Of a DNA stretch of 64,000 nt, positions 40,470 through 58,911 are shown one piece after another. The DNA is from Eubacteriales bacterium (lineage in GTDB: Bacteria > Bacillota > Clostridia > Oscillospirales > CAG-272), in the NCBI GenBank assembly GCA_045587385.1, contig JAZNCE010000048.1:9797-73796 (forward strand), given 5' to 3'. The notes under the pieces are model-generated. The model was not told the DNA's origin. It did not search any database and worked only from the letters and a program-made list of their open reading frames with translations. The first letter of the stretch is position 1; every line of letters begins with the position of its first letter. The translations under genes and the position numbers were made by a program.

Positions 40470-40691
40470 TCATCGCTCGTATTCATACCACCAACAGCCT
40501 ACCCGTTCACTCGGATAGACCCAAGCATTGATGTGGGAATTACCACACGCAATTTGTCCATATTTATTCTTGTTTTGGTGTTCTGCGTACCGGCAATCAC
40601 TACAATTATTGCTACTGCAAAAGCTTCCGCAAGGAATCTTTATCTTATTCTGAGAAGTCTTGTTGTTCTGGTTAATCTGATTGTTTTTCAT
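40470..40691 (-). CDS. 73-aa Cys-rich protein with N/Q/K-rich N-terminus (unknown)
   Basis: Strong RBS (AAGGAG, 8-nt spacing). Six Cys, including CGSFCSSNNCSDC. No signal peptide. Confidence 0.55.
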   Translation of the reverse strand: MKNNQINQNNKTSQNKIKIPCGSFCSSNNCSDCRYAEHQNKNKYGQIACGNSHINAWVYPSERVGCWWYEYER

Positions 40692-40729
40692 AATAAAAAT
40701 CTCCTTTAAATAAATTTTTTGGTTGTCAG

Positions 40730-41152
40730 TTAAATAATGTTTATCGGTTCATCAAAAATGATCACTCTATTCAGCATTCTCTCAGCTTTGTACCCGTATA
40801 GCTTGTTTTCGGAAATAACGTATACGGGAAAATAGAGGTGGTCGATGTCAGGTGGCATAGCCATCATAATATACTCAATGTATGCCTTATCCGCGGAAGA
40901 TAATGTACATTGATTGTTCAAATGGCTGTGTACTATACCTGCAAAACGCCATCGTTGCCAGCGCTCAATAACTTCATTTAAATACTCCACGTTTGGGGTA
41001 TACATATACCGATTGATGTCTTCGATTCGATCAAAAACCACTTCGCAGATGTCGTCCGCGCGGTCTGCTCCGAGCACGGCTCCGATTTCGTGATCACAAG
41101 CCCCTTGGGATGTGTCAGCAATAAGATCGTAAATTTCCTTGTATATCGTCAT
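40730..41152 (-). CDS. Stand-alone JAB/MPN+ (JAMM) metallopeptidase
   Basis: Exact HxHx7Sx2D motif in GIVHSHLNNQCTLSSAD, with an upstream Glu (DHEIGAVLG). AAGGAG RBS. Confidence 0.75.
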   Translation of the reverse strand: MTIYKEIYDLIADTSQGACDHEIGAVLGADRADDICEVVFDRIEDINRYMYTPNVEYLNEVIERWQRWRFAGIVHSHLNNQCTLSSADKAYIEYIMMAMPPDIDHLYFPVYVISENKLYGYKAERMLNRVIIFDEPINII

Positions 41153-41162
41153 GGGTTTCTCC

Positions 41163-42182
41163 TTAAGATTTTTTGTGCTGAGCTTTGAAGAAAGCTTCTT
41201 TGCGTTTGTTCGATTTACAATATGGGCAGGAGTAGAGACCTTTCTTATATTTGTGTAGTGGATTTTTCTTGCACGTATTTGTTATCTCTTTTTCATAGGC
41301 AGATAGTGCATTGAAATACCATTCAATCGGAACATTTTCGCCATTGAAAGTCTTTTGAAATAAATTTTGCAGTCGATAGGTCAGGCATTTATATGGCAAA
41401 CTGTAAATCGGGGGTTGATATCCTGCCGGACATTGTCCCTGTACATAAGGAAACTGGTAATTGCACATCAGCTCTGTGGGCTGTGGAACATTTTCGGTTG
41501 TGTTTCCTTTAGCAACTCCGACAGCGAAAGGATGGGCATCTATGATCAGTTGGAAGAGCATTAACGCTAAGGCAAAAATATCACTCTCCATTGAGAAAGT
41601 CGGCAAGGGCGCAGTTTTAAGCGTTTCTCCCTTGGGAATCGAGTTAGCAACGATTGAATACTCAGGAATACATACGTCACAACGGAAAACCTTGCCGCTC
41701 TTTTGATCTGATATATGCCATGAATCAACATCAATGAGTCGAACAAAGCCTGTGACGGGATCGATTAAAACGTTGAATGGATTAAGGTCACCAATCACAA
41801 TACCAGCCTCTTTGTGAATCGAGTACAGCAGTGCAGTCATGTTCTTTGCGATTGTACAGCGTTTTTCCATGTCAAGTGATTCGTCATCCCAGATCTCATT
41901 CAGCGGAACACCATTGACTCTTCGCATTACGAATCCCACGCACTTCCCGTTTCGATACAATATGTCTTTCGGATAAGCAATCTGGTCTTCGAGATTTGCC
42001 GGAACGCCCAATCTCAACATCGTTCTCAACTTTTCTTCTCGATATGAATTACAAAGCTCAGGCTTGTAAAGCTTAGCTATAGCACCGCTGTAATTTACCA
42101 CTTCAAAGATAGTAGCTTCACCGCCTCGTCCGCATTGTTTGCCAAGGATATAGCGACTTCCGAGCAAAGATTGATATTCCAT
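41163..42182 (-). CDS. Ser/Thr protein kinase-like protein (TerY-P-type) with C-terminal zinc-ribbon-like CxxC
   Basis: Start MEYQSLLG after AAGGAGG. G-loop GRGGEATIF, AIAKLYK (Lys), catalytic loop IGDLNPFNVLI, IDVDS in place of DFG. C-terminal CPYCKS. Confidence 0.75.
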   Translation of the reverse strand: MEYQSLLGSRYILGKQCGRGGEATIFEVVNYSGAIAKLYKPELCNSYREEKLRTMLRLGVPANLEDQIAYPKDILYRNGKCVGFVMRRVNGVPLNEIWDDESLDMEKRCTIAKNMTALLYSIHKEAGIVIGDLNPFNVLIDPVTGFVRLIDVDSWHISDQKSGKVFRCDVCIPEYSIVANSIPKGETLKTAPLPTFSMESDIFALALMLFQLIIDAHPFAVGVAKGNTTENVPQPTELMCNYQFPYVQGQCPAGYQPPIYSLPYKCLTYRLQNLFQKTFNGENVPIEWYFNALSAYEKEITNTCKKNPLHKYKKGLYSCPYCKSNKRKEAFFKAQHKKS

Positions 42183-42196
42183 ACAATCCTCCTTTC

Positions 42197-42904
42197 TTAG
42201 ATTTGGGGCAAAGGAAACACGTTCCACGCTTCATATTTTTCCTTGGGATAAGGAAGCATACAAAATCCATCATAAGAAACCTTATTTTCTGCACATATAG
42301 CTACGGTCGGATCTAACGGATACCACTTGTCCGAAAGGCGTATTAATGCCCAAGCGTGAGGCACACCGTCATGCGTTCCTTGAACGCAAACAAGCGGAAT
42401 ATCTAATAAATCAGCGCAGATCTTGTAAGCTAATGTTGCAGCTTTGCAAATTCCTTTGGCATACAACAGAGGGCCTGCCGGGGTATGTGCAAACTTATGC
42501 TTTTCGTATTCAAAATCATAGACCACGTGCTTGGAGAAATACTCGTACACCGCTTTAGCTTGCTCAACTTTGCTATTGCTCACAGATTTAGCGTACGCGG
42601 CTATTTTTTGTGCTTGATTTTCCATTTCCAATCGTACAACCTTATCTTTTTCAGAATCCAAAAAATAATGGAATTCTACGCAGAAGACCAATTCATTATA
42701 TGTCTTGAACGTGTATTGTTGAAAAAATGAGATGTTGGGATGCTCGAGAATGATACAATCAATAATTTTTTCAAGATCCTCCGGTCTGAGGAAAGGCACG
42801 AAGGTCCTCTCCTCGTGATTTTTCAATGCTTCCAATAATTTCATGTAAGTTTGCTGTAGATGTTTCGGTAGAAACTGATAATAATAAACATAAGTATTAT
42901 TCAT
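42197..42904 (-). CDS. Transglutaminase-like cysteine-peptidase-fold protein
   Basis: Cys-His-Asp arrangement GICKAATLAY...VPHAWALIRL..KWYPLDPT. Its start overlaps the PP2C stop by 8 nt. Confidence 0.65.
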   Translation of the reverse strand: MNNTYVYYYQFLPKHLQQTYMKLLEALKNHEERTFVPFLRPEDLEKIIDCIILEHPNISFFQQYTFKTYNELVFCVEFHYFLDSEKDKVVRLEMENQAQKIAAYAKSVSNSKVEQAKAVYEYFSKHVVYDFEYEKHKFAHTPAGPLLYAKGICKAATLAYKICADLLDIPLVCVQGTHDGVPHAWALIRLSDKWYPLDPTVAICAENKVSYDGFCMLPYPKEKYEAWNVFPLPQI

Positions 42905-43970
42905 TTCTTTTCCTCAACAGTTTATCAAAAGCAAGCTTAATCCTTTTGAGAAGTGATTCGCGGATAGCATCTTGGGACTTGTCTGTTACGACCGCATCCC
43001 CTATTTCCGTTTGATCGGTCTCTGCGTCGAGAGTTGCATACAAAAGTTTACGCCTTTTTTTGAAGAGCTGCTGCCAATCCGGGGGCATATAGTATTTCGG
43101 GGGTCTTGCAGAAGGGATCACATTTGTAGAACATATCAGCGCCGTCTTGTCATCAGTTATAGAGTCCAACAATAGAAACAATCCAGCTGATTTTTTTATA
43201 CTGCCCATAACGTTCTGTGCAACGGATTTATTCAATCCGTATTTGCGTAAAGATCTAAACATGGCCGTATAGACCAAATTACGAGAAATTGCTTTTGGAT
43301 TATCCACAAGATCCGATAACGTTACCCCTTTGTGTTTTAAATACCTGATCGTGTTGGAATCGGAAAGCAACATCAAAAGCGGAACGTATAGTCCATCGGT
43401 GTCTTCAATTGCCGGTTGCCTGATTTTGTCCATAATTCCATCGGTGGCGCATATAATCGAAACTATTTCTTGATCTATTCGATCTATGTGCCAGTATTTT
43501 GCGCCCGAACGCAGTGTAAGGACACATTGATCGACTCTTTGGCAAGGTGTCAAGTTCACATATTTACCGTTGGTTTGCTGAGCTATGATGCCGCCATCTC
43601 CGCAATGCCCGTAATAAAAAGTTGAGGTGACGTAATCATAAACAATGACCATTAAAGTAGTGTCGTACTCCGCAAGGTCCTCTTTGGCTTGATCCGCTTG
43701 ACGTTTTATATTTGAAAGGGCTTTTTGATAGGCCGTACGAATAAGAGATTTGACAACAAGCTCGTTTCTGTCTACCAATGGATAGTTTTCAACAATAAAT
43801 GTTGCAACAGTCTCCACTGCAAGACTGGATCCCTCGCCGCCGCATTTAGCAGATCCTACGCCATCCGCGATTGCAGCAACAAACAAATCTTCCTCGTGGA
43901 GGACGCAATATGCGTCCTCCGAAGTTTTGTGATGCTTTCCCGGAACGTAAGCAACATTACATTTTAGCAT
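42897..43970 (-). CDS. PP2C-family Ser/Thr phosphatase
   Basis: SEDAY, AIADGVGSAKCGG, HCGDGG, CATDGIMD metal-binding Asp blocks. GGAGG RBS. Confidence 0.75.
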   Translation of the reverse strand: MLKCNVAYVPGKHHKTSEDAYCVLHEEDLFVAAIADGVGSAKCGGEGSSLAVETVATFIVENYPLVDRNELVVKSLIRTAYQKALSNIKRQADQAKEDLAEYDTTLMVIVYDYVTSTFYYGHCGDGGIIAQQTNGKYVNLTPCQRVDQCVLTLRSGAKYWHIDRIDQEIVSIICATDGIMDKIRQPAIEDTDGLYVPLLMLLSDSNTIRYLKHKGVTLSDLVDNPKAISRNLVYTAMFRSLRKYGLNKSVAQNVMGSIKKSAGLFLLLDSITDDKTALICSTNVIPSARPPKYYMPPDWQQLFKKRRKLLYATLDAETDQTEIGDAVVTDKSQDAIRESLLKRIKLAFDKLLRKRNE

Positions 43971-44002
43971 AGCATAATGACCTCCAGGACAAAATGGAAT
44001 AA

Positions 44003-44725
44003 TTACCAGTCAGATGGCACTACGGCGAATCCCTGAGGCAAGGGTCCTAGCTGACAATTGTTGCCATCGCTAATAGCGCGGCTATAGGAGATAGTCGATA
44101 TGCTCTCAGAAAGCCAGTCAAACAATCCCGAGAGAGCCCCTTCATCGGTGCATTGAATCGTCCTTTTACTGAGGCTGGCAAGAGTTTGCATATCTGTGTT
44201 CTCAAGTCCAACCCCACAGCAGAACAGTCTGATTTTTTTCTGATCTTCACGTTCTCGCAATCTTTTTTTGGCTTCTTCCAAACTATCCGAGGGAAGGCCG
44301 TCTGTAACAACCATGACAAAAGGAGTAAATGCTGGAGTGCCGATAGATGAATAGACTCTGTTTCTTTCTCTGGTTAATTCAATAGATTTGATGATTGCCT
44401 CACCAAGAGGCGTGGTACCTTCCGCAACTATTTCAAGTGGGGGCTGTTTTACAAACTCGGCCATAGGTATCCAATCTTGAATCACCTTTACACCACGCCC
44501 ACCAAATGTTAATACGCACACATCCACTCTCTTCAACGTAATCGGGTCGGATGAATTAGATTTCTTAAAATTTTCGATTCCGTCAATAACGGCTTGGAGC
44601 TTTGATCCGTTGTTCATTGACCCTGATTCGTCAATCGCAATAACTGCCGCCAAATGCCCCTCCGAACAGGCTAAAATTTCGTTATAAGGTGCCTGCTTAA
44701 TTTCAATAGAGTTGTTAGTTGACAT
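44003..44725 (-). CDS. TerY-like von Willebrand factor A (vWA) protein
   Basis: MIDAS DESGSM, TPLGEAI and VVTDGLPSD. 240 aa, no signal peptide. Confidence 0.75.
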   Translation of the reverse strand: MSTNNSIEIKQAPYNEILACSEGHLAAVIAIDESGSMNNGSKLQAVIDGIENFKKSNSSDPITLKRVDVCVLTFGGRGVKVIQDWIPMAEFVKQPPLEIVAEGTTPLGEAIIKSIELTRERNRVYSSIGTPAFTPFVMVVTDGLPSDSLEEAKKRLREREDQKKIRLFCCGVGLENTDMQTLASLSKRTIQCTDEGALSGLFDWLSESISTISYSRAISDGNNCQLGPLPQGFAVVPSDW

Positions 44726-44784
44726 ATTTATTTCCCTTTCTCATTATCAATTATTATTTTAAAATCGTTGATTTGTATAACGTC

Positions 44785-45324
44785 TTATTTAACCTTTATG
44801 TTTGTAATAGTGCAGTTCTTCGCTTGGTATGTCCATGTTCCGTTCATATAGGGATCTCTCGCTCTTCCGTAAGGATATTTATACATCAAATCGTGTACAG
44901 AAACTCTGCAATTGTCATTCCGAGAGCAAATGTTCTGCTTAGCTACCAAGTATTCAATCGTAATTTTGTATGTCACACCTTTCTTAAGCCCTTTAAGAGT
45001 TGAAGATACGGAAGAAGGTGTAAGATCAAAGCTATCTTTAATATAGAACACTTTCGTACCGTTAATGGCAGGGGTAATTGTCAATTTCAACTCCGGAGCA
45101 TCACATCTATGACCGTAAGCCTTTGCCCCAGTAGATGTGAACTTAATTGAAGCGTTATTACCTGTCGCACGAACCGTAAAGGTTACTTTTGAATCAGCAT
45201 TAAAGGTGCGTGGTGTAGTGGATGCAGCTGACGCGCTAACGCTGAAAACACTTATGCTCGAAAGCAACACTGTGCAGAGGCAGAGGATGGAGATGAGTTT
45301 GGTGAATGTTTTTTTGATTTTCAT
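44785..45324 (-). CDS. Secreted beta-rich protein (unknown)
   Basis: Signal peptide MKIKKTFTKLISILCLCTVLLSSISVFSVSASA. AAAGGAAG RBS. Confidence 0.6.
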   Translation of the reverse strand: MKIKKTFTKLISILCLCTVLLSSISVFSVSASAASTTPRTFNADSKVTFTVRATGNNASIKFTSTGAKAYGHRCDAPELKLTITPAINGTKVFYIKDSFDLTPSSVSSTLKGLKKGVTYKITIEYLVAKQNICSRNDNCRVSVHDLMYKYPYGRARDPYMNGTWTYQAKNCTITNIKVK

Positions 45325-45457
45325 GTTAAAAATCTTCCTTTCTTTGATAAAATATGGTTTGATTGTGGTGGACCTCTCCTTAATTTAAGAAACCTCCTCT
45401 CTTTTTTGGAGAGATCCGTTAGGTGGATTTATATAATAAATTGTTTGAACTCTGAAA

Positions 45458-46369
45458 TTAGAGGCAGGCCGCGAAGATTGTAAAAAATCCTTTGTGATCT
45501 TTTTTGGGATGTTCATACAGAAAATCATCGTTCGATTCGTATGTGGCACGGTCATAGGTGAAGTACAAATGGATCTTTTTGCCAAGTCTGCTTGTCAAAT
45601 CAGCAAGTTCTGCGGCGTGGGTTTTATCCTCTGCCACTATGATTACGGATAACTCATCGCCAATTTTGATATTTGTATTGGATTTTCTGTGTTTATATAG
45701 TTTGATAACTCTCTCAAGCTTATCCATGAGATCATCGTTAGCAGTAGGTGTTCTTCTGGCAACCTCAACAAAGCTACGTACAACCTCGTCATTATCATCG
45801 AGAATCATTGCCGTGGGTCTCACGATTATGGAGGCCTTCTGATTTTCATTTTTTGCCTCTACAAAGGCAACATTAGCCACTTTGATATTATCATATTTGC
45901 CAGCGATCAAAAGCTGGTTTGCTGCGAGGATACGTTTGTATCCGAATACGTCTAATTCCGATAAGTAACCACCAAGTCTGTATCGAATTCCCTCAGATGC
46001 TAACAGGGACACTCCGCGACCGGCGATAATATACCCTTTTCCGGAGAAGTATCCTGTCGCGGATTCAAACGACAATTTTTGGACGAATCCTGAAGCCGAC
46101 AATTTCTTTAAGTGCCACTGGATTTCGTGCTTTGTGTAGCTATAGCCCTTATTTGTAAAAAGACGAAACAACAATTCCGACGTAACTACAAGGTGAACGG
46201 AAAGAGCTCGACAAATCTCTCGATCAAGATCAACGATTAAAATCGAGGTGGGCCTGTCAACAGTGTGTCTGCGAACGTATTCGCTATCATAGTCAAACAC
46301 GCTGAACGGACTCTTCTTTTCGTCAATTATGGTTGTATTTTCTTTCATATTTAAATTCTGAATTTTCAT
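45458..46369 (-). CDS. wHTH protein, replication-relaxation-family-like (possible D..ExK nuclease-type motif)
   Basis: wHTH-like segment DREICRALSVHLVVTSELLFRLF...HLKKLSASGFVQKL. YDNIKVANVAFVEAK. GGAGG RBS. Family call is tentative. Confidence 0.4.
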   Translation of the reverse strand: MKIQNLNMKENTTIIDEKKSPFSVFDYDSEYVRRHTVDRPTSILIVDLDREICRALSVHLVVTSELLFRLFTNKGYSYTKHEIQWHLKKLSASGFVQKLSFESATGYFSGKGYIIAGRGVSLLASEGIRYRLGGYLSELDVFGYKRILAANQLLIAGKYDNIKVANVAFVEAKNENQKASIIVRPTAMILDDNDEVVRSFVEVARRTPTANDDLMDKLERVIKLYKHRKSNTNIKIGDELSVIIVAEDKTHAAELADLTSRLGKKIHLYFTYDRATYESNDDFLYEHPKKDHKGFFTIFAACL

Positions 46370-46505
46370 TATTATGTATCCTCCAAAAAATTATTGTCAT
46401 CGGATTGATTGGTAACAATGACCATCATCTCAAATTATCGTGAAATATATGTGAGAGTGCCTTATCAAGGCGGTCGAATTAGTATCTTCATTATATAATC
46501 ACCTC

Positions 46506-46781
46506 TTAAGCGACATCTTCAGCAAACTGAAGAACGCTTTCAATCACTCCTCTTGGGAAGCGATCTTCAAAGAGTTTTGTGATATATACGAGGACTTGGC
46601 TGCCTACGCTCCATCCTCCGAACACATAGCTCATAGCAGACTTGCCATTCTCAAGCTGAAGCTCTACGATACATCCGGATGGTGTCCTTCTGCGTACGAT
46701 TCCTTGATAGGACGAATAAAGTTCCACATCTTGGTTGTTGATACTTGAATTTACTGGTGAATTATGATATAATATTTCCAT
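46506..46781 (-). CDS. Small OB/S1-like protein (unknown)
   Basis: GGAGG RBS. YQGIVRRRTPSGCIVELQLENGKSAMSYV...GSQVLVYITK resembles the S1/OB pattern. Confidence 0.4.
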   Translation of the reverse strand: MEILYHNSPVNSSINNQDVELYSSYQGIVRRRTPSGCIVELQLENGKSAMSYVFGGWSVGSQVLVYITKLFEDRFPRGVIESVLQFAEDVA

Positions 46782-46887
46782 AAGTGATACCTCCGTTTTC
46801 TTTGTGACTATATGATATCACATAGCGAAGACAGCGGAAAGGTATCGAAAGTGTACTAAAAGTGTAATCAACAAAAGGGAGGCATTT

Positions 46888-49800
46888 ATGACAGCGTTTA
46901 GGCTTGTTTACCAATATCTTAAACATCGAAAAGGCATGAGTATAGAATCATTAGCCGAAAATTTGTATATGAGTCCTGAAACCGTGAAAAAATGGTTAAA
47001 GAATGGTTTTAGGGCAAACAATATTACTCCTGAAAAGATTGCAAATCAACTTTTTGATTCAGATGCTCTTATGGAAGATTTCATAAACTACTTGGACAAC
47101 ATAGGCTTTTCTTTTTCTCAAAAAGCAAACGGAGAAATAAATACAGATACATTCATTAATGCCCTATCCTCTCTTTTGCAAAATGATTCGCCCAACAAAT
47201 TCCCTGATGATTTTGGAAAAAACAAAAATTTGACAGCAGAAAATGTACAAACTACTGTCAATATTGTTTTTTCAATTATAGATACTATATCTAATATCTC
47301 TCTCCCCGACTATTCCACATTGACAAACACAAACAGCAAGTACTGTACTGTTAGCCGAGCTACACTTATATCGCTTGCTAAGCATTGTTTGAATATAGAT
47401 ATAGACAATGAGCTTAGTGAAGGATGTACAGTTGATGCGTTGAATCAGCATATTCAAGATAATCCCTGCGATTTTCTTAAAGAATTTGCTAAGCAAGGGT
47501 ATAAATTTGAAGAGAAAAACGAGTTGGTTGTTGTTAAAGCTTTGAATCATACCAATACCGAAGTTAATGACGACACATTGTTTGAAACCTTAAAAACACT
47601 GTTTGAGGCATACAAACTTTTCGATCATTCAGATGTATCGTGCCTTAAAAAGAAAGAAATTAATATAACATTAAGCACGTTTTCCAACGCACTGGCCTTT
47701 CGCGGACTATTCATTACTCCCGAGCGCAAAAAATATTTCTGTGAATTTGTTCGTTATAACATACTGACAAGTAACCACGATTGCAACTATATATATCCTA
47801 TACTCTATAGTGTAAAGGAACAGTATGCCGGGAAAATAGAAAAAAGCCCGCCTCTTGTGCAAGTCGGGCTTGAAAAAACAATTGAATTGGTGGGCGAATA
47901 TTGCAATAATATTTTCCTAACAGATAACAATACCCTTCCTTTCATTCCAAATTTTCTTGCAACATTGGATTTTTATGATGTTGATAATTCTCAAAGGGTT
48001 AGAATACTTGAAGATCTTATCTTTAATAAGAAAGCCTATGATATAAGACTAATAAAAGCTCTTGCGAGTATTAATTCGAGTCGTTTGATTATCTGTCAAA
48101 AATACATTGAATCAACAATTTTTTCTCTATCAGATAAAGTCATCACCGAAGATATACGACGTGAACTTGTTGCATTCGTTTGCATGTTTGGCCGAGGCAC
48201 ATTTGAGCCTCTCGTCTATTTTGAAGCAAAAACCAATAAAAACTTTTTAAACTCCTTTTCAAGATTCACAAACTTTGTTTCGAGGAATTTTGACATCATT
48301 GTTTCCCATAATCATATACGTCGAAATGATATGGCACAAGGTTTATCGTATATTTTACTCACTATGAGTAGATATGATAAAAATTTAGCTAAAGCAACTC
48401 TACGCAACGTTAGATTGGAAAAGTTTGAAGACCATAAATTATTGACGGAAACATGTAAATTTATTATTGATGGGGAAGTTAGCTTTCGCTGTGCTACAAG
48501 TTTTACTAAAAGCTTTTCAAAAAGGAAAGATTTCTTTGATTATGTAGAAACTCATCTGATATGTTCAAAAAATCCGTTTTTGGAAAACGATAACGCAATG
48601 ATGTTAGAGGTCCTAAGCCAAATTCGTTCAGCTGCCAGAAAGAAGAATAATGAAGAAGACGATGATATAGAATTATCACAAAATTTAAAGGATTTCGCAG
48701 ACAACCTTTTGTTTTGGATTACTGAGGCTGCAATGGAAGATGTTAGACAAAATAGGCCAGTCCGTCATTTGTTTTGGCTTGCCAAGCAGTACCCTAATTG
48801 TATTAACTACGAATTAAACAACGATTATAACGAAAAAAGATCGGATGTTTTTGTTCAATTAATAAAGAATAGTAATTTTGAAATAATATTACCAAGCCAT
48901 TTTCAAAACATATGGGATGTATTTAGTTTGAAAACAAAACAAGATCTCACATTTGCGGGAGAACTCGATAAATGCATTTCTTATCTGTTTGAAAAGAATA
49001 AGCAATTTGAAGCACTCGACTTCATTATTTCAAACTATCGATTTGCTAGCACAATCAACCGGGCAAGAATTTTATGTTGTATTAAATCATTAGCAAACAG
49101 CCCGGAATTGTCAAATTTATCCTCGCCTATACTTTCAAAAGTTATCGGTTTTGCAAAAAGAAACTACGCTGATGAGGAATTGGGAGAAATCAAAGAACGG
49201 TTAATCCTCTCGTTGTCGCAACTTAAAAAGAGTAATAGGATATCTATCTATGATAGGTTTAATGCGTATTACAAATTATTAGACAAGCCTCTTGCAGAGA
49301 AAATAGCTCTTTCTATTACCATCGACGAAGCTGATAAGTATTTAACTTTTGTAGATGATGTGCTTGATTCAAAATATAATTCATGGCAAAGAGCTTGCCT
49401 CAAGGGCTTACTTTCAAATCTGTTACATCCCTCAATTTTTTGGACATTGAACTTAGATCGTCAGATCAAGTTGATTCATTACGTAAAAAATAAAGGAGAG
49501 TATTATGCAGACTTAAAAAATCTAATGCAAGATATAGTTGACAGAAACAACTTCTCTATCTTAGACTCAAGGCTCCGAACTGCGTTAACCATTCACTGCC
49601 ATAACTATATTGATCTCAAATATCCTCAAAACGCGTGTTTCCTTGAATTTCTTGAAAACACTTTAAACAAATTGACACAGAACGCTTATACACACTCAGA
49701 AATCAGAAACACTTACGGGTTAAAAACCGATACTCTTATTTACCATATTGTAGATGCATTTAAAAATCAACCCCAAAAAACTGCAATAATATGTGTTAGC

Positions 49801-50739
49801 TCAATTTGCAAAATATATAAGCAATTATCAATTCTTTCTACAGAACAAGAGTGGAACCCCTACAAAGCGTCTTTGTTAGCAGACAGAATCAAATTGTTCC
49901 CTGCAATTGTAGCAAATCCCTGCATAAATAATATTGCAAAACATTATGCTCGCAAGATGTACGGAATGATTAACAAAGCAAAAATGGATCTCCTTGATTC
50001 GGATTTGAAAGAGTTATTAAATGAACTTAGGAAAATTTGTCAGGATCAGTGGCCAAATTGGTTCGATATACATCCAATTGACATAACATTACTGCAAGAA
50101 GATAAAATCAAAGTTGGAATTGATGTTCCAATAGATAGTTTCTTAATTGATATTAGCGATACTTCTCGTTTTTCTTATGACAAGGCACAGAATGACCTTA
50201 GAAAATGGCGCGAAAATATTGATGCTCGGCCTCGGCCACTGGAACCTTCAGAAAAGAATGAGGTTGTAGCAGTATCCTGTAGAAATGGTTATGTACCGAT
50301 TTCGGGCTGGGGACTCGTATATGAGTGTGTTAAAGAGAAGAGAGATGGCTATTATAGTCCATCTGAAATAAAATCAACTATCATTTCAATAGCTGAAATT
50401 GCTCAAATACAAACAAAAAACAATTCCACACAATCGTTAAATTGCGAGGAAATTATTTATCAGTTCGAAAGAACATTTAATGCTCTGATGACGAGGATAC
50501 CCCAAAAAGCCCAGAAGCATGGACGGTATAATCGGATTTATATACGCGACGATGCATATGACATTATTGATTATAAGATTCTTCCGGATGTCGTTGCTTT
50601 TGTCAATTTCTATCATGATTATATCAAAGGGACATCGGCGCTCGAACCCAAAATAAAGACCTCGGTATTGGAAGCATTTTATGATTATCATAAAATGGTT
50701 CTGCGATTGTTAGATAAAATAATTCTCAAAGAATGCTAA
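46888..50739 (+). CDS. 1283-aa protein: XRE-type HTH N-terminus plus ~1200 aa with no recognisable domain
   Basis: AGGGAGG RBS. HTH segment RKGMSIESLAENLYMSPETVKKWLKNG. The remainder is Leu/Ile/Asn/Lys/Phe-rich. No Walker A, HxH or nuclease motif found by eye. Confidence 0.7.
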   Translation: MTAFRLVYQYLKHRKGMSIESLAENLYMSPETVKKWLKNGFRANNITPEKIANQLFDSDALMEDFINYLDNIGFSFSQKANGEINTDTFINALSSLLQNDSPNKFPDDFGKNKNLTAENVQTTVNIVFSIIDTISNISLPDYSTLTNTNSKYCTVSRATLISLAKHCLNIDIDNELSEGCTVDALNQHIQDNPCDFLKEFAKQGYKFEEKNELVVVKALNHTNTEVNDDTLFETLKTLFEAYKLFDHSDVSCLKKKEINITLSTFSNALAFRGLFITPERKKYFCEFVRYNILTSNHDCNYIYPILYSVKEQYAGKIEKSPPLVQVGLEKTIELVGEYCNNIFLTDNNTLPFIPNFLATLDFYDVDNSQRVRILEDLIFNKKAYDIRLIKALASINSSRLIICQKYIESTIFSLSDKVITEDIRRELVAFVCMFGRGTFEPLVYFEAKTNKNFLNSFSRFTNFVSRNFDIIVSHNHIRRNDMAQGLSYILLTMSRYDKNLAKATLRNVRLEKFEDHKLLTETCKFIIDGEVSFRCATSFTKSFSKRKDFFDYVETHLICSKNPFLENDNAMMLEVLSQIRSAARKKNNEEDDDIELSQNLKDFADNLLFWITEAAMEDVRQNRPVRHLFWLAKQYPNCINYELNNDYNEKRSDVFVQLIKNSNFEIILPSHFQNIWDVFSLKTKQDLTFAGELDKCISYLFEKNKQFEALDFIISNYRFASTINRARILCCIKSLANSPELSNLSSPILSKVIGFAKRNYADEELGEIKERLILSLSQLKKSNRISIYDRFNAYYKLLDKPLAEKIALSITIDEADKYLTFVDDVLDSKYNSWQRACLKGLLSNLLHPSIFWTLNLDRQIKLIHYVKNKGEYYADLKNLMQDIVDRNNFSILDSRLRTALTIHCHNYIDLKYPQNACFLEFLENTLNKLTQNAYTHSEIRNTYGLKTDTLIYHIVDAFKNQPQKTAIICVSSICKIYKQLSILSTEQEWNPYKASLLADRIKLFPAIVANPCINNIAKHYARKMYGMINKAKMDLLDSDLKELLNELRKICQDQWPNWFDIHPIDITLLQEDKIKVGIDVPIDSFLIDISDTSRFSYDKAQNDLRKWRENIDARPRPLEPSEKNEVVAVSCRNGYVPISGWGLVYECVKEKRDGYYSPSEIKSTIISIAEIAQIQTKNNSTQSLNCEEIIYQFERTFNALMTRIPQKAQKHGRYNRIYIRDDAYDIIDYKILPDVVAFVNFYHDYIKGTSALEPKIKTSVLEAFYDYHKMVLRLLDKIILKEC

Positions 50740-50753
50740 AGGGAGGAATCAAT

Positions 50754-51311
50754 TTGATTAAAAACGATAACAACATTCAATTAAATGCGATGGAAGAAAG
50801 CACCGTCAAAGCATTTCATACTGTTATATCCAGTATCCTTGAAGAAAAGGCATTTTCAATCTCAATTGGAATTACAAAAAGCGCTTTTGCTGAAAAATAT
50901 TTGGAGTTAGACCTTCCGTTGAAACCCGAAGACGGCGATAAAATTGATCCTCTTTGCGTTACAATGAAAAATGGAGTGTTTTATCTTGAATATTTTTATA
51001 GAGCAGAGTGCATATCGAATGAGCTCGGCTGCATCGCTACCAACGAAATCAATAGTAACCTGAATAATCTTCCAACAAAATGCGTCTATAGCCAACACGA
51101 AGAAGGTTTTTATATTTCGGCTGTATTTTATAATTCCGAAGATATCATCGAAGTAACAAACGCGGTGCTTCTTGTTCTTGAATATCTCATAATATTAGAG
51201 AATTTTTTAAAAGGAAAGGCAACAGATATGGAAACCGAGCAGGCATTTGATGCCATAGCAGCTGGCGGTGGTTATGTTTCGTCTAAGATTGAGGATTTTA
51301 ATATTTGTTAA
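50754..51311 (+). CDS. Hypothetical protein, partner B of the giant HTH protein
   Basis: GGGAGG at 50742-50747, then TTG at 50754. Alternative starts are ATG 50733 (overlapping the upstream stop) and ATG 50790. Confidence 0.55.
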   Translation: MIKNDNNIQLNAMEESTVKAFHTVISSILEEKAFSISIGITKSAFAEKYLELDLPLKPEDGDKIDPLCVTMKNGVFYLEYFYRAECISNELGCIATNEINSNLNNLPTKCVYSQHEEGFYISAVFYNSEDIIEVTNAVLLVLEYLIILENFLKGKATDMETEQAFDAIAAGGGYVSSKIEDFNIC

Positions 51312-51325
51312 AAATGGAGACTAAT

Positions 51326-52321
51326 ATGGATATTGTGAGCAAATTGAAAGAAAAGTTTGACGAGTATGGGTTAATGGATATCGCTGAAAGCTTTTGTGAG
51401 AGTTATAAATTAGCTATTAAGGATATGTATCCGGAAATCAGATTTGATAATGACGCGCTCCCATCCGACGATTGCTTTAAAACGCTCGTTGCTGTAAAGC
51501 AATCCATAATAGCAGACAAGGATCTATCATCAAAACGCGATTTAACGGACTTGGAAATTAAACGAATACTCGAAATTCCTTATACTCAAGTTCAGCAAGT
51601 TAAAGAGTTGATATGTGACTCGTATGATTACCAGCATGACGTAATAGAAAGTTATTATGGGAAAAATCTTTCCATGTATTTTATTACACCGGTAACGGTG
51701 AAAAAAGTATTTGAATATTTATCTGAAAAATTCGAGAATGAAATATGCAAACATGTATTTCTTGATTCTCTTATTCTTGGATACGAAGAAACAACAAACA
51801 GAATAGATACTTTGATAGCTTGTACAGGAATAGCTGCCACCGAGATTCTGTATGAAACGTATTGCAGAAACGGAAAGCTGGGCTATCTGCTATACCCCTA
51901 TTATACAAATCCGAAAAAGGCTATTAAATATTTATCCGAAAGACTTGATAAAAGCACGGTCGCCCACATACTCAAAACAGATTTTTGGTATCTATATGCC
52001 TACAAGGATGACGGATATCAAGGCGTCGCGACACACGGACATGATCAAGAGTATGTTGACCGAGTTGTTAGCGTCTATAAAGCGCAAGAAAATATTGCCA
52101 TTGCTTTCCATAATACAATGAATCAAGTCACAAAAGAAAATGCTCAAAATCTATGGGAAGAAACATTTTTGCCAAGATACAGCAAAATAAAAGACCATTT
52201 TTTGCAATATCCCCCGTGCCCACTTTTGACCAAATCTTTGTATGGCGTGATTACGATGTTTGACAGATACGAAATTGAGCTTAGCAATGAGTTTGCGTTT
52301 TATTCTTTAGATAGGACATGA
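51326..52321 (+). CDS. Hypothetical protein, partner C
   Basis: GGAG lies 5-6 nt upstream of ATG 51326 (alternative ATG 51314). Begins within 15 nt of the upstream stop (TAA 51309-51311). Confidence 0.55.
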   Translation: MDIVSKLKEKFDEYGLMDIAESFCESYKLAIKDMYPEIRFDNDALPSDDCFKTLVAVKQSIIADKDLSSKRDLTDLEIKRILEIPYTQVQQVKELICDSYDYQHDVIESYYGKNLSMYFITPVTVKKVFEYLSEKFENEICKHVFLDSLILGYEETTNRIDTLIACTGIAATEILYETYCRNGKLGYLLYPYYTNPKKAIKYLSERLDKSTVAHILKTDFWYLYAYKDDGYQGVATHGHDQEYVDRVVSVYKAQENIAIAFHNTMNQVTKENAQNLWEETFLPRYSKIKDHFLQYPPCPLLTKSLYGVITMFDRYEIELSNEFAFYSLDRT

Positions 52322-52504
52322 TACGGCAAATGGTAGGACGCTATATTGCGGACAGTCCTATCTGACAAAAACAAGGTAGTTCGGTTGAAAATTGACAGAA
52401 CACTCGATTGATTAAAGTTTTCTGTTTGTTAACACAATTAAGTCTGGACTTCCGCTCTCTTCTGTGGTATATTGTGTGTTACCAAAAACAAGGAGGTAAC
52501 ATAC

Positions 52505-52759
52505 ATGGCAAAGATTACGATTGAAGAGCTGTACCGCGGAGAAAAATACGACATCATGAGCGCAGTGACGGCAAAGGCATTGCATCTCGGCATTGACGAG
52601 CGAGCCGAGGAAGGTCGGACGTGGATTGAGATGGAACTCGTCCGTCAGACCGTGATAGCAATTGAACAAATGAAAAAGAACGGTGACTGTATTGCCGAGG
52701 AAGATCTCGGAGATATGGTCACCGTTTCTGTATGCGGAGGTTCTGATGAAAACAATTGA
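52505..52759 (+). CDS. Small conserved-looking IME backbone protein (unknown)
   Basis: AAGGAGG RBS before MAKITIEELYRGEKYD. Confidence 0.5.
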   Translation: MAKITIEELYRGEKYDIMSAVTAKALHLGIDERAEEGRTWIEMELVRQTVIAIEQMKKNGDCIAEEDLGDMVTVSVCGGSDENN

Positions 52760-53033
52760 CGAGCTGTGGTACGGCAACATCTCACCATTTGAGCAATGCA
52801 CGCACGGTGACAAGCGGTTGAAGGAACTGCTGAAACTGGTTGCCCGGAACCGCGAGGATTTGGACGGATCCCTTACGGAAAAGCAGAAGGAAACACTCGA
52901 AAAGTTTGAGGACTGTATGAATGAGATGCATAGCATCACCGAGCGCGATGCATTCTCCTACGGATTCCGACTCGGAGTGAAGCTGATGGCTGAAGCCTTC
53001 CTTCTGCCTTTGGGTGAGAATGAGAATTTATAG
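52746..53033 (+). CDS. Small IME backbone protein (unknown)
   Basis: Start MKTIDELWYGNISPFEQ overlaps the upstream gene by 14 nt. Confidence 0.5.
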   Translation: MKTIDELWYGNISPFEQCTHGDKRLKELLKLVARNREDLDGSLTEKQKETLEKFEDCMNEMHSITERDAFSYGFRLGVKLMAEAFLLPLGENENL

Positions 53034-54428: not shown

Positions 54429-54749
54429 ATGGACAACCAAGACACTAAAAGTTCAATCATTGCATTCAGAGTCACGCCCGAGGAAAGAACGTGGATCGAG
54501 AAACATTCCTACGGTAATTATCGCGTCATTAGCGATTTTGTTCGGGATTGTGTACTCAAAAAAGACATCGTCATCGTCAAAGGTCTCGATGAATTCTCAA
54601 ACGAATTACGGCGCATCGGTAACAATTTGAATCAGCTTACGAGAGCTGTCAATGCAGGATATGTCCGCGCCGTTGACCTCACAGAAACGAAGGAGGAGAT
54701 GGAAAAGCTATGGCAATCGTTAAATTCGTTACTGCGCGATGTCCCATGA
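54429..54749 (+). CDS. mobC: MobC-family relaxosome accessory protein
   Basis: AAAGGAG RBS. Hallmark RRIGNNLNQLTRAVN. Confidence 0.75.
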   Translation: MDNQDTKSSIIAFRVTPEERTWIEKHSYGNYRVISDFVRDCVLKKDIVIVKGLDEFSNELRRIGNNLNQLTRAVNAGYVRAVDLTETKEEMEKLWQSLNSLLRDVP

Positions 54750-55696
54750 ATAATATCTTTCCGTACGTGATGAATTCCAAGAAAACAGATGGCGGCGTCC
54801 TCGTTTCAGGCATCCACTGTATGCCCGAAACCGCGCTGAATGAATTCCGTTTCGTCAAAAACAAATTCGGCAAGACCGATGGCAGACAGTACTATCATAT
54901 CGTGCAATCCTTCAGTCCCGACGATAATCTTGACGCTGAAACCGCCCATGAGATTGGGCTGAAGTTTGCCGAATTCTATCCCGGATATCAGATCGTAGTT
55001 GCCACCCATTGTAATCGCTCACACCTCCACAGCCACATCATAATGAACTCCGTGAACATGGAAAACGGCAAAAAGTTTCACCAAACAGCAAGCGAGCTGG
55101 CTCGGGTAAAAGAATATTCCAACAAGTTTTGTCAGGAGTATGGACTCTCGGTTACCGAGGTGAAATCCTCCGCTCAGCTGTACCACAAGTGGAAGGATTT
55201 GCTTATCAGAAAGGCATTTTCTATCGCCAACCGCACACGTTCCAAGGAAGAATTCATCTGGGAAATGGAGATGCACGGCTACAAGGTTGCCTGGAAGGAC
55301 AACCATAAGTATATCACTTTCACCACTCCCGACGGTCATAAATGCCGTGACAATAAGCTCTTTGCAGAGCAACTCCTGCGAAAGAATTTGGAGATATACT
55401 TCGCTCTCGGCGGTTGTGAATCAGGACTTGCGGATCAATACAAGCGGTATGTAAACCACTCTCAACCCGAACACACCTACACCGTTGGCAACGGACTCTT
55501 CAATCTGTTCAAAAGCTTGTTGGAAAGCATTCCGTATGAAGAAAGATTCACACCGCCTGTTGAAGATCACCAACTCGACAAAATGACCGTGATGATACTT
55601 GAATCAATGGGCATCAAGGTCGAGCCTAAAGCGCTCTTCTACTATTCTGCAAATAATCAGCAGGAAGAAGAACAGGGCTATGGGCTCTGGATGTAA
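54710..55696 (+). CDS. Relaxase/mobilization nuclease (MobA/VirD2-type)
   Basis: YYHIVQSFSPDD and the His cluster THCNRSHLHSHIIMNSV. Overlaps the mobC 3' end. Confidence 0.75.
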   Translation: MAIVKFVTARCPMNNIFPYVMNSKKTDGGVLVSGIHCMPETALNEFRFVKNKFGKTDGRQYYHIVQSFSPDDNLDAETAHEIGLKFAEFYPGYQIVVATHCNRSHLHSHIIMNSVNMENGKKFHQTASELARVKEYSNKFCQEYGLSVTEVKSSAQLYHKWKDLLIRKAFSIANRTRSKEEFIWEMEMHGYKVAWKDNHKYITFTTPDGHKCRDNKLFAEQLLRKNLEIYFALGGCESGLADQYKRYVNHSQPEHTYTVGNGLFNLFKSLLESIPYEERFTPPVEDHQLDKMTVMILESMGIKVEPKALFYYSANNQQEEEQGYGLWM

Positions 55697-55741
55697 TCAA
55701 AATTTGCACCGCAAAACAAAGAAAAAGCAGAAAGGAAATTA

Positions 55742-55990
55742 ATGACCAATAATTTAAACGAAAATATTTTTACAACATTCTCGGATGAAGCTGTAAGCAA
55801 TCGCCGCCGCAGTATCTATCTTTCAAGTGAAAAGACTATAGGCAAAATGCATTATACCGTTGTTTCCGCTTTCCCAATGCCCTATGATGATGTTGATGCT
55901 GAATCAGCATCGGATAAAATTGCCTATCTGATCAAAGGCGAGAAAGTTAACAAAAAGTTATCTGGACTTATGGAAGGAGATGCGGTATGA
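55742..55990 (+). CDS. Small hypothetical protein
   Basis: AAAGGAAA RBS; 82 aa. Confidence 0.4.
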   Translation: MTNNLNENIFTTFSDEAVSNRRRSIYLSSEKTIGKMHYTVVSAFPMPYDDVDAESASDKIAYLIKGEKVNKKLSGLMEGDAV

Positions 55991-56056
55991 TGTGTTTGTA
56001 TCCTATTCGGTTTGATTTTACAGAATCCATGGGATTCGGAAAGGAATGAAACTATT

Positions 56057-57700
56057 ATGAAATCAAGCCACAATTTAATAACCGCCCTCTATTGCCGTCT
56101 CTCGCAAGAGGATATGATGCAAGGCGAGTCAAACAGCATCAGAAATCAACGCATGATCCTGCAGAAATACGCCGAAGACCACGGCTTCCGTAATATCGAA
56201 TATTATATCGATGACGGATACAGTGGAGCAAATTTCAACCGTCCCGATTTCAAGCGTATGATGTCAGATATCGAATCCGGCAAGGTTGCCACGGTTATCG
56301 TCAAGGACCAATCACGTCTCGGTAGAGATTATCTGCAAACGGGTATGCTGATGGAGATCACTTTTCCTCAGTATGACGTTCGGTTCATTGCCATCAACGA
56401 TGGCGTGGACAGTGCCAACGGTATCAGCGATTTTTCGGGCATTAAGAACTACTTCAACGACTTCTACGCCCGTGACACCAGCAAGAAGATACGAGCCGTA
56501 CAGCGAGCCAAGGGCGAGCGTGGAGAGCGTGTCGGCACAGCCATCCCATACGGATATATGAAGGATCCAGATGATCCAAAATGCCTTGTACCAGACAAGC
56601 CTGCCGCGGAGGTAGTGAAGCGGATATTTGAGATGTATACCAAAGGGATTGGTATACGAAGAATATGTGCCATACTCGAAGCAGAGAAAATCGAAAGCCC
56701 AAGCGTATATCTGTTCAAAAAGTGCGGAAACCGTTCGGGAAGACCAAATTTCCAAAAGCCGTATAACTGGGTAAAGACTACTGTGCGAAAGATGCTTTCC
56801 AACAGAATATATTGCGGAGATACGGTCAACTTTCAGACCTATTCAAAATCCAACAAACTCAAAAAGCGTATCAAGAACGCAGAGGAAGATATGTTGATCT
56901 TTGAGAACACCCATGAAGCAATCGTTGATCGCAAAACCTTCGACATGGTTCAAAAGCACTTTGAGGGCAGAAAGCGCCCCGATATACAGGGCGAGATGGA
57001 CAAATATGCTGGATACATCTTCTGCGGTGAATGCGGTTCGAGATTGTATCTGCACAGAGCCTTCAGCATTGATCCCGAAAAGAACTTTTTCCAATGTGGC
57101 GGATATCAGACCAAGGGGAAAAGCCACTGCACTGCCCATTATATCAACGAGAACGTGGTAGATACCATCGTGCTTGCTGATCTCAAGCGCGTAACCGAAT
57201 ACGCTCGAAGTCGCACGGAAGAATTCTATGCTATGGCTACAGAAAACGGTGAGGCAGAGGCAAGGAAGTTCTATGCAAATGCAGAAAAAGAAAAGAGACG
57301 GATCGATAGCCGAATCAAAGAACTCGACAATATCATCCGTTGCTTATACGAGGATCGGGTAACAGGCAGAATCACGCCCGAACGCTATGATACGATGGCA
57401 GGTGGCTACGAACAGGAGCAAGCCTCGCTCCGAGAGGAATTGAAAGCACTTAACGAACAGATGAACGAACTGGATATGCGTGAGCATTACGTCAATGAGT
57501 TTATCGCCAAGGCAAAAGAGTATATCGAAATGCCAAAGCTCACGCCCGAACTGCTCCGAGTGTTCATCCGTAAAATTGAGGTGATGGAGAAAACCGAAAA
57601 ATATTCCCGTACCTGCGGGAATACCATCATCATTCACTACACATTCGAATACCCGAGGCAGTGTACCACCAATCCCGTCAATAACGAGAAAACCGCCTAA
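56057..57700 (+). CDS. Large serine recombinase (integrase of the IME)
   Basis: ALYCRLSQED (catalytic Ser context), YIDDGYSGANFNRPDF, VIVKDQSRLGRD. Recombinase and zinc-ribbon region (CGECGSRLY...C) and a coiled-coil C-terminus. Confidence 0.85.
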   Translation: MKSSHNLITALYCRLSQEDMMQGESNSIRNQRMILQKYAEDHGFRNIEYYIDDGYSGANFNRPDFKRMMSDIESGKVATVIVKDQSRLGRDYLQTGMLMEITFPQYDVRFIAINDGVDSANGISDFSGIKNYFNDFYARDTSKKIRAVQRAKGERGERVGTAIPYGYMKDPDDPKCLVPDKPAAEVVKRIFEMYTKGIGIRRICAILEAEKIESPSVYLFKKCGNRSGRPNFQKPYNWVKTTVRKMLSNRIYCGDTVNFQTYSKSNKLKKRIKNAEEDMLIFENTHEAIVDRKTFDMVQKHFEGRKRPDIQGEMDKYAGYIFCGECGSRLYLHRAFSIDPEKNFFQCGGYQTKGKSHCTAHYINENVVDTIVLADLKRVTEYARSRTEEFYAMATENGEAEARKFYANAEKEKRRIDSRIKELDNIIRCLYEDRVTGRITPERYDTMAGGYEQEQASLREELKALNEQMNELDMREHYVNEFIAKAKEYIEMPKLTPELLRVFIRKIEVMEKTEKYSRTCGNTIIIHYTFEYPRQCTTNPVNNEKTA

Positions 57701-58290: not shown

Positions 58291-58911
58291 TTACGGGTTG
58301 TCCCCTTGTCCGAGCACCTGCCGCAGCTTGCGGCGGATGCGATAGATCGCATTGGAAATCGACTTTTCGTCCTTTCCAAGCGACTTTGCGATCTTGCACG
58401 TGCTTGCTCCCGAAACGTACATCCACCATACGCGGCTTTCATAAGGAGAAAGCGCGCGCTGAATGGTTCGCTGCAGAGCCTCCATGCGCTCCTTATCGAT
58501 CAAGGTCTCCGAAACCGAAGCCTCGCTGCCAAGCAGCCCGGGATTTTGTTCGATCAAGCCCTCTCCCTCCAAGGAAAGCAGCCCCTCGCGGCGTTGCCTG
58601 CGAAACGTACGCAGAGCGGACGCCAATCCGTGACCAACGCAGATCTTGGCGTACAAACCAAACTCCACACCCTCGCGAGTCGTGTCATAGGTCTGTACCG
58701 CACTGCAAAACACCACGCTTGCCTCTTGTCGCAGATCCTCTAAATCCGCGTTCCCCATACCGGGAGCGGCATACTTGCTTACCATGGCTTGCAGCATAGG
58801 CGCATAGCGGTCAAGCAGCAGCGCGTACGCTTGCTGATTCCCTGCGCGGGCAGCGTCAAGCAGATCGCAAAGATCTGCATCCTGCTGAATTTTCGGGTTG
58901 GAACTACTCAT
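58291..58911 (-). CDS. Sigma-70 family RNA polymerase sigma factor
   Basis: Region 2-like LLLDRYAPMLQAMVSKY...DLEDLRQEASVVF. Region 4 HTH STCKIAKSLGKDEKSISNAIYRIRRKL. Confidence 0.7.
   Translation of the reverse strand: MSSSNPKIQQDADLCDLLDAARAGNQQAYALLLDRYAPMLQAMVSKYAAPGMGNADLEDLRQEASVVFCSAVQTYDTTREGVEFGLYAKICVGHGLASALRTFRRQRREGLLSLEGEGLIEQNPGLLGSEASVSETLIDKERMEALQRTIQRALSPYESRVWWMYVSGASTCKIAKSLGKDEKSISNAIYRIRRKLRQVLGQGDNP

Follow-up and report, generated by a model that had tools for sequence, protein, structure and literature searches.

We have analysed a 64,000-nt stretch of an Eubacteriales genome (contig JAZNCE010000048.1; hereafter the window, whose positions serve as coordinates), in which three plus-strand genes (A, B and C) lie beside a small divergent gene (U). 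The relative loci that we recovered are designated L001 to L018. Gene A encodes a member of a rare family of giant solenoid proteins, as yet unannotated, whose N-terminal heads are interchangeable. The conserved unit at the locus is U and A in divergent orientation, usually accompanied by B, and not the A-B-C trio that a first-pass annotation of the window had put forward as a candidate system. The features of the locus are listed below, with lengths in amino acids (aa).

46506–46781, minus strand: gene U, 91 aa, divergent from A
46745–46868, plus strand: regulatory region of A, with a promoter-like site, a palindrome and phased repeats
46888–50739, plus strand: gene A, open reading frame (ORF) with translation, 1283 aa, ATG start
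46888–47298, plus strand: head of A (residues 1–137), a small putative helix-turn-helix (HTH; about residues 9–45) and a helical linker; the variable part of the protein
47356–47538, plus strand: winged-helix-like domain of A (residues ~157–217), three helices and a beta hairpin, motif K.CTVSRATLISL
47569–50043, plus strand: HEAT/ARM-like alpha-solenoid of A (residues ~228–1052), the presumed sensor or binding surface
50056–50736, plus strand: C-terminal alpha/beta domain of A (residues ~1057–1283), motifs QWPNWF and PISGWxLVYEC
50754–51311, plus strand: gene B, 185 aa, TTG start (alternative ATG at 50733)
51326–52321, plus strand: gene C, 331 aa (alternative starts at 51305 and 51314 (ATG))

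The ORFs, stops and ribosome-binding sites (RBSs) confirmed that A, B and C are tightly packed, with the junctions that the first-pass annotation had described. The TAA stop of A (50737–50739) is followed by GGGAGG (50741–50746) and by the TTG start of B at 50754, 15 nt after the A stop, while the TAA stop of B (51309–51311) is followed by ATGs at 51314 and 51326 as starts for C. Database gene calls and homologue alignments favoured 50754 as the start of B and 51326 as that of C. The claim that the genes occupy the lowest-GC part of their island was equally correct, the GC content being 0.33–0.37 over 46–52 kb, 0.41–0.46 in the remaining island and 0.51–0.57 in the flanks. The presence of homologues at 43–64% identity, together with purifying selection on B and U (ratio of nonsynonymous to synonymous substitution, dN/dS, of 0.14 and 0.16, respectively), indicated that the genes are real.

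No family was matched above threshold by A, B or C in scans of Pfam, NCBIfam, PADLOC and PHROG, and zero families of PADLOC-DB v2 (2023) were matched at E ≤ 1. A motif search of the A sequence, which is L/I/K/N-rich, found no P-loop, HExxH or CxxC motif. Both results agreed with the earlier description of A as a protein of this composition with no P-loop or enzyme signature. We searched the records of plasmids and phages for relatives of A, and the viral contigs of IMG/VR for those of all three proteins. None turned up, which sets A apart from typical genes of phages or plasmids.

We have modelled the A body with AlphaFold from a 31-sequence alignment. The model (pLDDT of 88.3) comprised the winged-helix-like domain, a solenoid of ~800 residues and a C-terminal alpha/beta domain of ~230 residues. 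Its comparison with the Protein Data Bank (PDB) using Foldseek returned only generic HEAT/ARM solenoids (transportin-3, importins, CRM1, mTOR and CAND1), with TM scores of about 0.2–0.3. This supported the earlier guess that A is an all-helical repeat scaffold. The Foldseek search of the body model against a viral structure library gave nothing significant, and the sequence and profile searches of the PDB with the A1 alignment gave nothing usable. In body numbering, the winged-helix-like domain is predicted to consist of helices at residues 20–31, 45–54 and 58–65 and strands at 69–73 and 76–80. No segment of the family is better conserved (73% mean pairwise identity). The QWPNWF and PISGWxLVYEC motifs of the C-terminal domain are invariant in the A1 alignment. 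The variability of the solenoid is highest around residues 651–800. A match of residues 925–987 to HTH_40 (E of 3.7e-4, below the cut-off) was rejected as spurious, as it falls inside the solenoid and occurs in a single member.

The head, at 25–41% mean pairwise identity among six close homologues, had been described as a clear XRE-type HTH. The Pfam HTH_3 model aligned to residues 9–40 below threshold (E of 0.033; 14.7 bits vs. a cut-off of 23), and a profile built from the six heads found better matches in the PDB, the best being the HTHs of RppC and of small terminases (E of 2.6e-4). These weak matches suggest an HTH-like head of unsettled subfamily.

The full-length A sequence had five close homologues among 5.8 billion proteins, at 43–52% identity, and only two GTDB species representatives carry A, both Eubacteriales metagenome-assembled genomes. 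The body profile detected 27 cluster representatives among 1.84 billion sequences, nearly all of them 1000–1470 aa long, and a metagenome scan with a nine-sequence alignment gave two loci. The family originates from Clostridia/Eubacteriales genomes and from metagenomes. The six close homologues share a common sequence from SLPDYST (residue 138) onwards and differ in their first ~137 residues, four bearing a small HTH and two (P0002 and P0003) an OmpR/CadC-type winged helix. Among the family members, Pfam assigned N-terminal heads as TIR_2 (five members), Pkinase (four) and Trans_reg_C (one), the remainder being headless or having unassigned heads.

The TIR and kinase heads largely retain the motifs of their domains. 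The best TIR_2 match reached an E of 2e-10, and the TIR glutamate motif [WT]E[IL] is kept in P0022, P0026, P0027, P0029 and P0033. The HxD...N and DFG motifs are both intact in three of the four kinase heads, with P0041 having DTD instead of DFG. In PADLOC searches with the relatives, the TIR heads weakly matched the TIR domains of SAVED-TIR and "Effector" models (E of 1e-5 to 8e-3), and the kinase heads matched the PD-T4-6, mad6 and MkoA kinases. A Pfam scan found no SIR2 domain in A or in the 27 family members. The profile matches of the relatives span body residues ~6–360 and ~510–1130. The winged-helix-like domain is almost fully covered in the TIR-headed members and partially in the kinase-headed ones, where the matches start at profile positions 34–99. 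The matches extend over the C-terminal alpha/beta domain in some of the TIR- and kinase-headed members.

The contexts of these relatives are varied. The TIR-headed P0027, whose NCBI name (toll/interleukin-1 receptor domain-containing protein, MBR6633077.1) reflects its head only, stands alone in three contigs, flanked by a glycoside hydrolase and an Fe-ADH gene, so that head and body appear to be self-sufficient. In L018, the neighbours of a headless member are a STAND-like AAA+TPR protein, a MazF toxin and a serine recombinase. In L016 (1136–8991), the kinase-headed P0032 is preceded by a 450-aa protein, 31% identical to a 567-aa protein described below, and is followed three genes downstream by a homologue (31%) of X303, a neighbour of U in the window, with no TerY-P genes nearby. 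On this sequence evidence, X303 may be functionally linked to the A family and not to the VWA-PP2C-kinase triad of its own neighbourhood. The components recombine in the manner typical of conflict loci.

Gene U, overlooked in the first-pass annotation, encodes a small beta-rich protein and is the most constant neighbour of A. A U homologue lies divergently upstream of every close A homologue (nine loci recovered), and U is more conserved than A. By tblastn, the U copies upstream of A were 99% (L013), 93% (L001), 73% (L006) and 49% (L004/L005) identical to that of the window. In L002 the relative is distant (34%), and in L003 it is marginal (27% to the L008 copy, E of 0.009); these are the two loci whose A bears a different head. 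A further copy (62%) is present in L008 and L009, upstream of replacement genes that are not homologous to A. U is an obligate-looking divergent companion of A. Searches with the U sequence and its alignment gave no match to a family (Pfam, NCBIfam, PADLOC and PHROG) or to a PDB entry. The sequence pattern had raised the suspicion of an S1/OB-like barrel, which would recall the OB-fused kinases of the defence-type TerY-P; no search supports it and we do not claim it.

Gene B follows A in L001, L013 and L004/L005 (the four distinct loci in which the head is of the same type and the contig is long enough), its homologues being 50–65% identical. Where A is replaced, B is split into two frames near residues 137–149 (L008, 10001–10557; L009, 8076–8632; L010, 656–1176), which suggests that B decays without A. 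The AlphaFold model of B had a pLDDT of 70.7, with a central part of low confidence (below 50 at residues 89–106). It shows an N-terminal helix, a multi-stranded curved beta-sheet and long C-terminal helices. The best Foldseek match was BacA PA14_16140 (8q8o; E of 3.5e-3, probability of 1.0, TM scores of 0.42/0.54), a regulator resembling type III secretion system (T3SS) chaperones and YbjN (PMC10948618), and weaker matches were to the T3SS chaperones SicP, Spa15 and SpcU. Proteins with this fold bind partner proteins and have regulatory roles (PMC10948618). We have tentatively assigned B to a YbjN/T3SS-chaperone-like fold from its predicted structure. The predicted order of an N-terminal helix, a curved beta-sheet and long helices appears to be the same, whereas B has an extra C-terminal helix and tail, the scores are weak and Pfam gave no YbjN match.

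For C, only four homologues were found. The only other locus with C after B is L009, in which a contig end leaves 33 aa to compare (94% match); C is absent from L001, L013 and L002 to L006. More distant relatives (37–39%) adjoin an acetyltransferase in unrelated contexts in L011 and L012. The PDB gave no match, including with the C alignment profile, and neither did the viral-contig scan. Gene C is probably facultative cargo and is not a conserved partner of A. The slot after B is elsewhere occupied by an unrelated gene of ~111 aa (L001, 14457–14804; equivalents in L004, L007, L008 and L013). This gene matches Pfam sigma-70 region 1.2 marginally (22.3 bits vs. a cut-off of 22) and weakly resembles part of a sigma-factor-like gene of the window (58291–58911). 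Just past C, positions 52314–52355 resemble the 3' end of the ~111-aa gene (13 aa at 54–62%; about 70% at the DNA level). This stretch may be what remained of that gene after its displacement by C, with weak statistical support. A 175-aa ORF of the window (52412–52939) has the DUF6809-like N-terminus of the TnpV-DUF6809 pairs of L001 described below. In L007 (1051–9032), B and the ~111-aa gene lie, with no A, beside a small HTH protein, an 873-aa VWA protein and a 1167-aa Tubulin_2 protein.

The distribution of the four genes identified the conserved unit. U lies beside every close A, B follows A in several loci and C follows B only in L009, the unit thus being U and A in divergence, usually with B, and not A-B-C. 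The co-occurrence of homologues expected of a trio was borne out for B, which is regular after A, and failed for C, found once next to B. As a conserved trio, A-B-C breaks down, since C is missing from all other A loci and B from three of them. The three-gene model was hence wrong in its membership: U belongs in and C out.

We have compared the window with its relatives at the DNA and protein levels. Relative to L001, DNA identity is 85% over 40617–44744, 92% over 45280–46805 and 66–70% through A and B, with no similarity detectable over 46806–47275 or after 51311. The corresponding protein identities are 91% (JAB), 86% (kinase), 86% (transglutaminase), 93% (PP2C), 61% (VWA), 47% (X179), 95% (X303), 93% (U), 50% (A) and 60% (B). 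Relative to L013, U is 99% identical and A only 50%, the homology of the window to this U-matched element breaking at 46805/46806. The A genes of L001 and L013 are, conversely, 99.3% identical in nucleotides (only 27 differences), despite synonymous divergence (dS) of 0.23 for B and 0.31 for U. Gene A thus behaves as an exchangeable, deeply divergent allele, 50% identical between flanks that are 85–99% identical, and the pattern of identities among the window, L001 and L013 indicates that A was swapped between related elements together with its own 82-bp upstream region.

In L008 and L009, A is replaced by other genes. There, the slot between U and B (L008, 5559–9547; L009, 3652–7655) is filled by a 567-aa protein and a membrane Ser/Thr kinase of 736/741 aa, with a transmembrane helix and extracellular repeats. 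This kinase resembles the kinase heads found on A bodies (GxGGTGxxYxC...KE[LV]YP). We have considered whether the two proteins are a split and diverged A; hhalign gave a probability below 1% for both, and they are not homologous to A.

The DNA between U and A carries candidate regulatory elements. For A, the strongest promoter-like candidate is TTGAAT-17-TATAAT with a TG extension (46745–46773), which overlaps the start of U. Downstream of it are a palindrome, CTATATGATATCACATAG (46808–46825), and, just upstream of the A RBS, three phased repeats spaced by 11 bp, AAGGTATC, AAGTGTAC and AAGTGTAA (46839–46868). At the equivalent place in L001, L013, L004 and L006, whose heads are alike, the sequence is GGTGTC-AAAAA-GTGTC. 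L002, with its OmpR-type head, has three copies of ACTTCTC, also at 11-bp spacing, and the GGTGTC-type repeats are missing in loci where A is replaced. Judging from these sequences, the repeats appear to travel with the A allele and to vary with the head type, which would fit a head that binds its own leader region.

Beyond U, the window contains a TerY-P-like module and, on the other side of the locus, the genes of a mobile element.

40730–46369, minus strand: TerY-P-like module (context), with X303, X179, VWA, PP2C, transglutaminase-like, Ser/Thr kinase and JAB-like genes
40730–44725, minus strand: JAB-like, kinase, transglutaminase-like, PP2C and VWA genes, assigned with Pfam
41163–42227, minus strand: Ser/Thr kinase of the module, with a C-terminal Zn-ribbon-like motif
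44785–45324, minus strand: X179, with a clear signal peptide ahead of a beta-rich mature region
45458–46369, minus strand: X303, between U and X179
54429–57700: MobC/NikA-like protein, MobA/VirD2-type relaxase and 562-aa large serine recombinase with DUF4368

The set of MobC, relaxase and large serine recombinase confirmed that the island is an integrative mobilizable element, as had been proposed. As a separate observation, the L001 element is bracketed by two TnpV-DUF6809 pairs (2164–2669 and 19285–19904), beside the chromosomal genes whiA and dnaE.

Adjacent VWA (E of 6.4e-8), PP2C_2 (E of 1.2e-21) and Pkinase (E of 1.9e-7) matches were found in the module. The Pkinase match scored 31.2 bits against a cut-off of 31.7, and the same protein matched PD-T4-6 of PADLOC (E of 1.5e-11), being the only one of the three to do so; the VWA and PP2C proteins had no PADLOC match at E ≤ 0.01. 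The kinase ends in C-x5-H ... CPYC, a zinc-ribbon-like pattern seen by eye, with no model match. TerY-P kinases carry a C-terminal zinc ribbon, or an OB fold in the defence version. The module of the window has in common with the TerY-P triad its VWA, PP2C and kinase proteins, the end of the kinase possibly being a Zn ribbon, and differs by its extra transglutaminase-like, JAB-like, secreted X179 and X303 proteins. The triad itself, as summarised in PMC11090510 (Anantharaman 2012; Gao 2020), consists of VWA, PP2C and a Ser/Thr kinase, and A, B and C are not components of it. X303 and X179 matched nothing above threshold in Pfam, NCBIfam, PADLOC and PHROG, and X303 had nothing usable in the PDB. 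X179 diverges fast (47% to L001, its neighbours being at 93–95%), and VWA is also divergent (61%).

The first-pass annotation had placed A directly adjacent to this module; U, X303 and X179, all on the minus strand, intervene. The module as context held in part: its VWA, PP2C and kinase genes are present on the minus strand, whereas its link to A is facultative. The same module flanks U and A, or the replacement of A, in L001, L008 and L009. In L013 (8223–9134), the transglutaminase, PP2C, VWA and X179 genes have been deleted entirely, and the kinase gene and X303 for the most part, the JAB-like gene being joined to an X303 fragment, and U-A-B and the following genes are intact. X303 was not found upstream in L004.

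By analogy, we favour the view that the A family is made of proteins coupling an effector head to a solenoid sensor, with an immunity-type role, and that the A of the window would be a sensor with transcriptional output; we see an even chance of this being right. The solenoid and C-terminal domain would sense an invading phage or rival element through a protein or some other cue, and recognition would switch the head. The output in the TIR- and kinase-headed relatives would be NAD+ depletion or phosphorylation. In the window allele, it would be changed transcription, given the predicted DNA-binding head. This head would bind the phased repeats between the A promoter and its RBS, resulting in autoregulation, and might also control the divergent U-X303-X179-VWA-PP2C-kinase operon. 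B, as a chaperone- or adaptor-like and subfamily-specific partner, would hold or tune A. The defence-type role suggested in the first-pass annotation seems by analogy more plausible now, supported by the TIR and kinase heads of distant relatives and by the allele shuffling. The sensor-effector view also draws on the stand-alone P0027, on the conflict-type surroundings of the L018 member and of the window copy (lowest-GC part of a mobilizable island, next to the TerY-P-like module) and on the operator-like repeats. We also put forward, tentatively, a broader proposal: that these are single-polypeptide immune receptors of Clostridia, free of any nucleoside triphosphatase (NTPase), in which one sensor body serves TIR, kinase and transcriptional outputs, the HTH alleles switching on U and the TerY-P-like module, and these deeply divergent, recombining alleles being kept by frequency-dependent selection on mobile elements.

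Several observations weigh against the sensor-effector interpretation, which draws on sequence and predicted structure. The HTH match of the A head is weak and its binding to the repeats putative, and the co-variation of head and operator was seen in two or three classes only. As a generic scaffold, a solenoid is no proof of sensing. PADLOC gave no match outside the heads in seven relatives, the body matching no defence model. DSR2, the defence protein compared below, had no sequence, profile or PADLOC match to A (E ≤ 1), the PDB profile search returned nothing, and DSR2 chains were not among the top 50 Foldseek matches of the A body. B is absent from the A loci of L002, L003 and L006, and in L007 it occurs without A, next to the VWA-tubulin-like pair. 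Finally, most contigs are short, which leaves the neighbourhood statistics thin, and the family is very rare, limiting any enrichment test.

The alternative that survives best is that A is an element-housekeeping transcription factor, i.e., a large ligand-binding regulator that would answer a cellular signal by controlling island genes (the U-X303-X179-TerY-P-like operon, or transfer and excision), with no role in immunity. Large regulators of the MalT/LAL and SARP types would be its counterparts, A having no equivalent of their ATPase. We consider this unlikely, even though it would account for the HTH head joined to a conserved winged-helix-like domain, the divergent promoter layout with U at every close homologue, the phased repeats of the intergenic region and the location of A always on or near serine-recombinase elements. 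That the same body bears TIR or kinase heads, and can stand alone among housekeeping genes, argues for sensor-effector logic. In addition, the TerY-P-like genes were lost from L013 with U-A-B intact, and alleles diverging by 50% within near-identical flanks would be unusual for such a regulator.

The proposal of the first-pass annotation, an obligate defence or exclusion system made up of the three components A, B and C, is very improbable. Tight spacing, the RBSs, the absence of a terminator-like site between the genes and the second B-C adjacency in L009 speak for it. It is contradicted by the loss of C elsewhere, with the ~111-aa gene in its place after B, by the unrelated contexts of distant C relatives, by the A loci that lack B (L002, L003 and L006) and by TIR-headed members that have no partners. 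Least probable of all is an addiction, toxin-antitoxin-like or entry-exclusion module of A and B (with or without U) in which B is a chaperone-type antidote, since the mobile-element location, the chaperone-like small partner, its decay where A is replaced and the MazF and other toxin-antitoxin genes of related islands are set against a window A with no recognisable toxic domain, three loci with A and no B, and headless and TIR-headed forms in chromosomal, non-element contexts.

If the sensor-effector interpretation is correct, an unannotated family would be added to the immune repertoire of gut and rumen Clostridia. To our knowledge, Clostridia are poorly covered by defence catalogues, which were built mostly on Proteobacteria and Bacilli. 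One sensor body with three outputs (NAD+ depletion, phosphorylation and transcription) would amount to a natural experiment, in which the constant body would make the output readable by simple assays. In its transcription-factor form, the family would provide a rare example of an immune-type sensor that switches genes directly and needs no NTPase. The shuffling of alleles between near-identical elements also offers a concrete locus for studying the exchange of specificity cassettes. Should the interpretation fail, annotation would still gain a newly defined domain family and a corrected operon, U-A-B in place of A-B-C.

The statement that the locus matches no named system stands, DSR2, STAND and every PADLOC system having been rejected by test. 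The closest parallel in layout is DSR2 (defence-associated sirtuin 2) of Bacillus subtilis, whose order is SIR2, an HTH with a beta hairpin, a helix bundle, HEAT repeats and a C-terminal domain (PMC11263360), the cavity of the latter binding a phage tail tube protein (PMC11263360). As in DSR2, the A family consists of single large polypeptides that can be encoded by a stand-alone gene (P0027), and its TIR-headed members have a predicted N-terminal NAD+-consuming effector. The order of effector, HTH-type domain, HEAT-type repeats and C-terminal domain is also the same, a likeness in predicted layout only. DSR2 differs by its SIR2 head, in place of the TIR, kinase, HTH or winged-helix heads of the A family, whose solenoid is roughly twice as long, and the A of the window has a predicted DNA-binding head and no enzyme. 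With no DSR2 match in PADLOC or among the top 50 Foldseek matches, the parallel is architectural and not one of homology.

The second parallel is with the STAND class, in which the head fused to one sensor core is either a death effector (TIR, nucleases) or a DNA-binding domain that turns the protein into a transcription factor, with TPR or HEAT sensor arms. Swappable heads on a conserved core with repeats are common to the A family and to the STAND proteins (Avs/bNACHT; MalT, AfsR/SARP), and a STAND-like gene adjoins the family member of L018. Unlike them, A has no NTPase: neither GxxxxGK[ST] nor a relaxed variant was found in A, and Pfam and NCBIfam gave no AAA, NACHT or NB-ARC match. Any switch in A would thus work without nucleotide hydrolysis.

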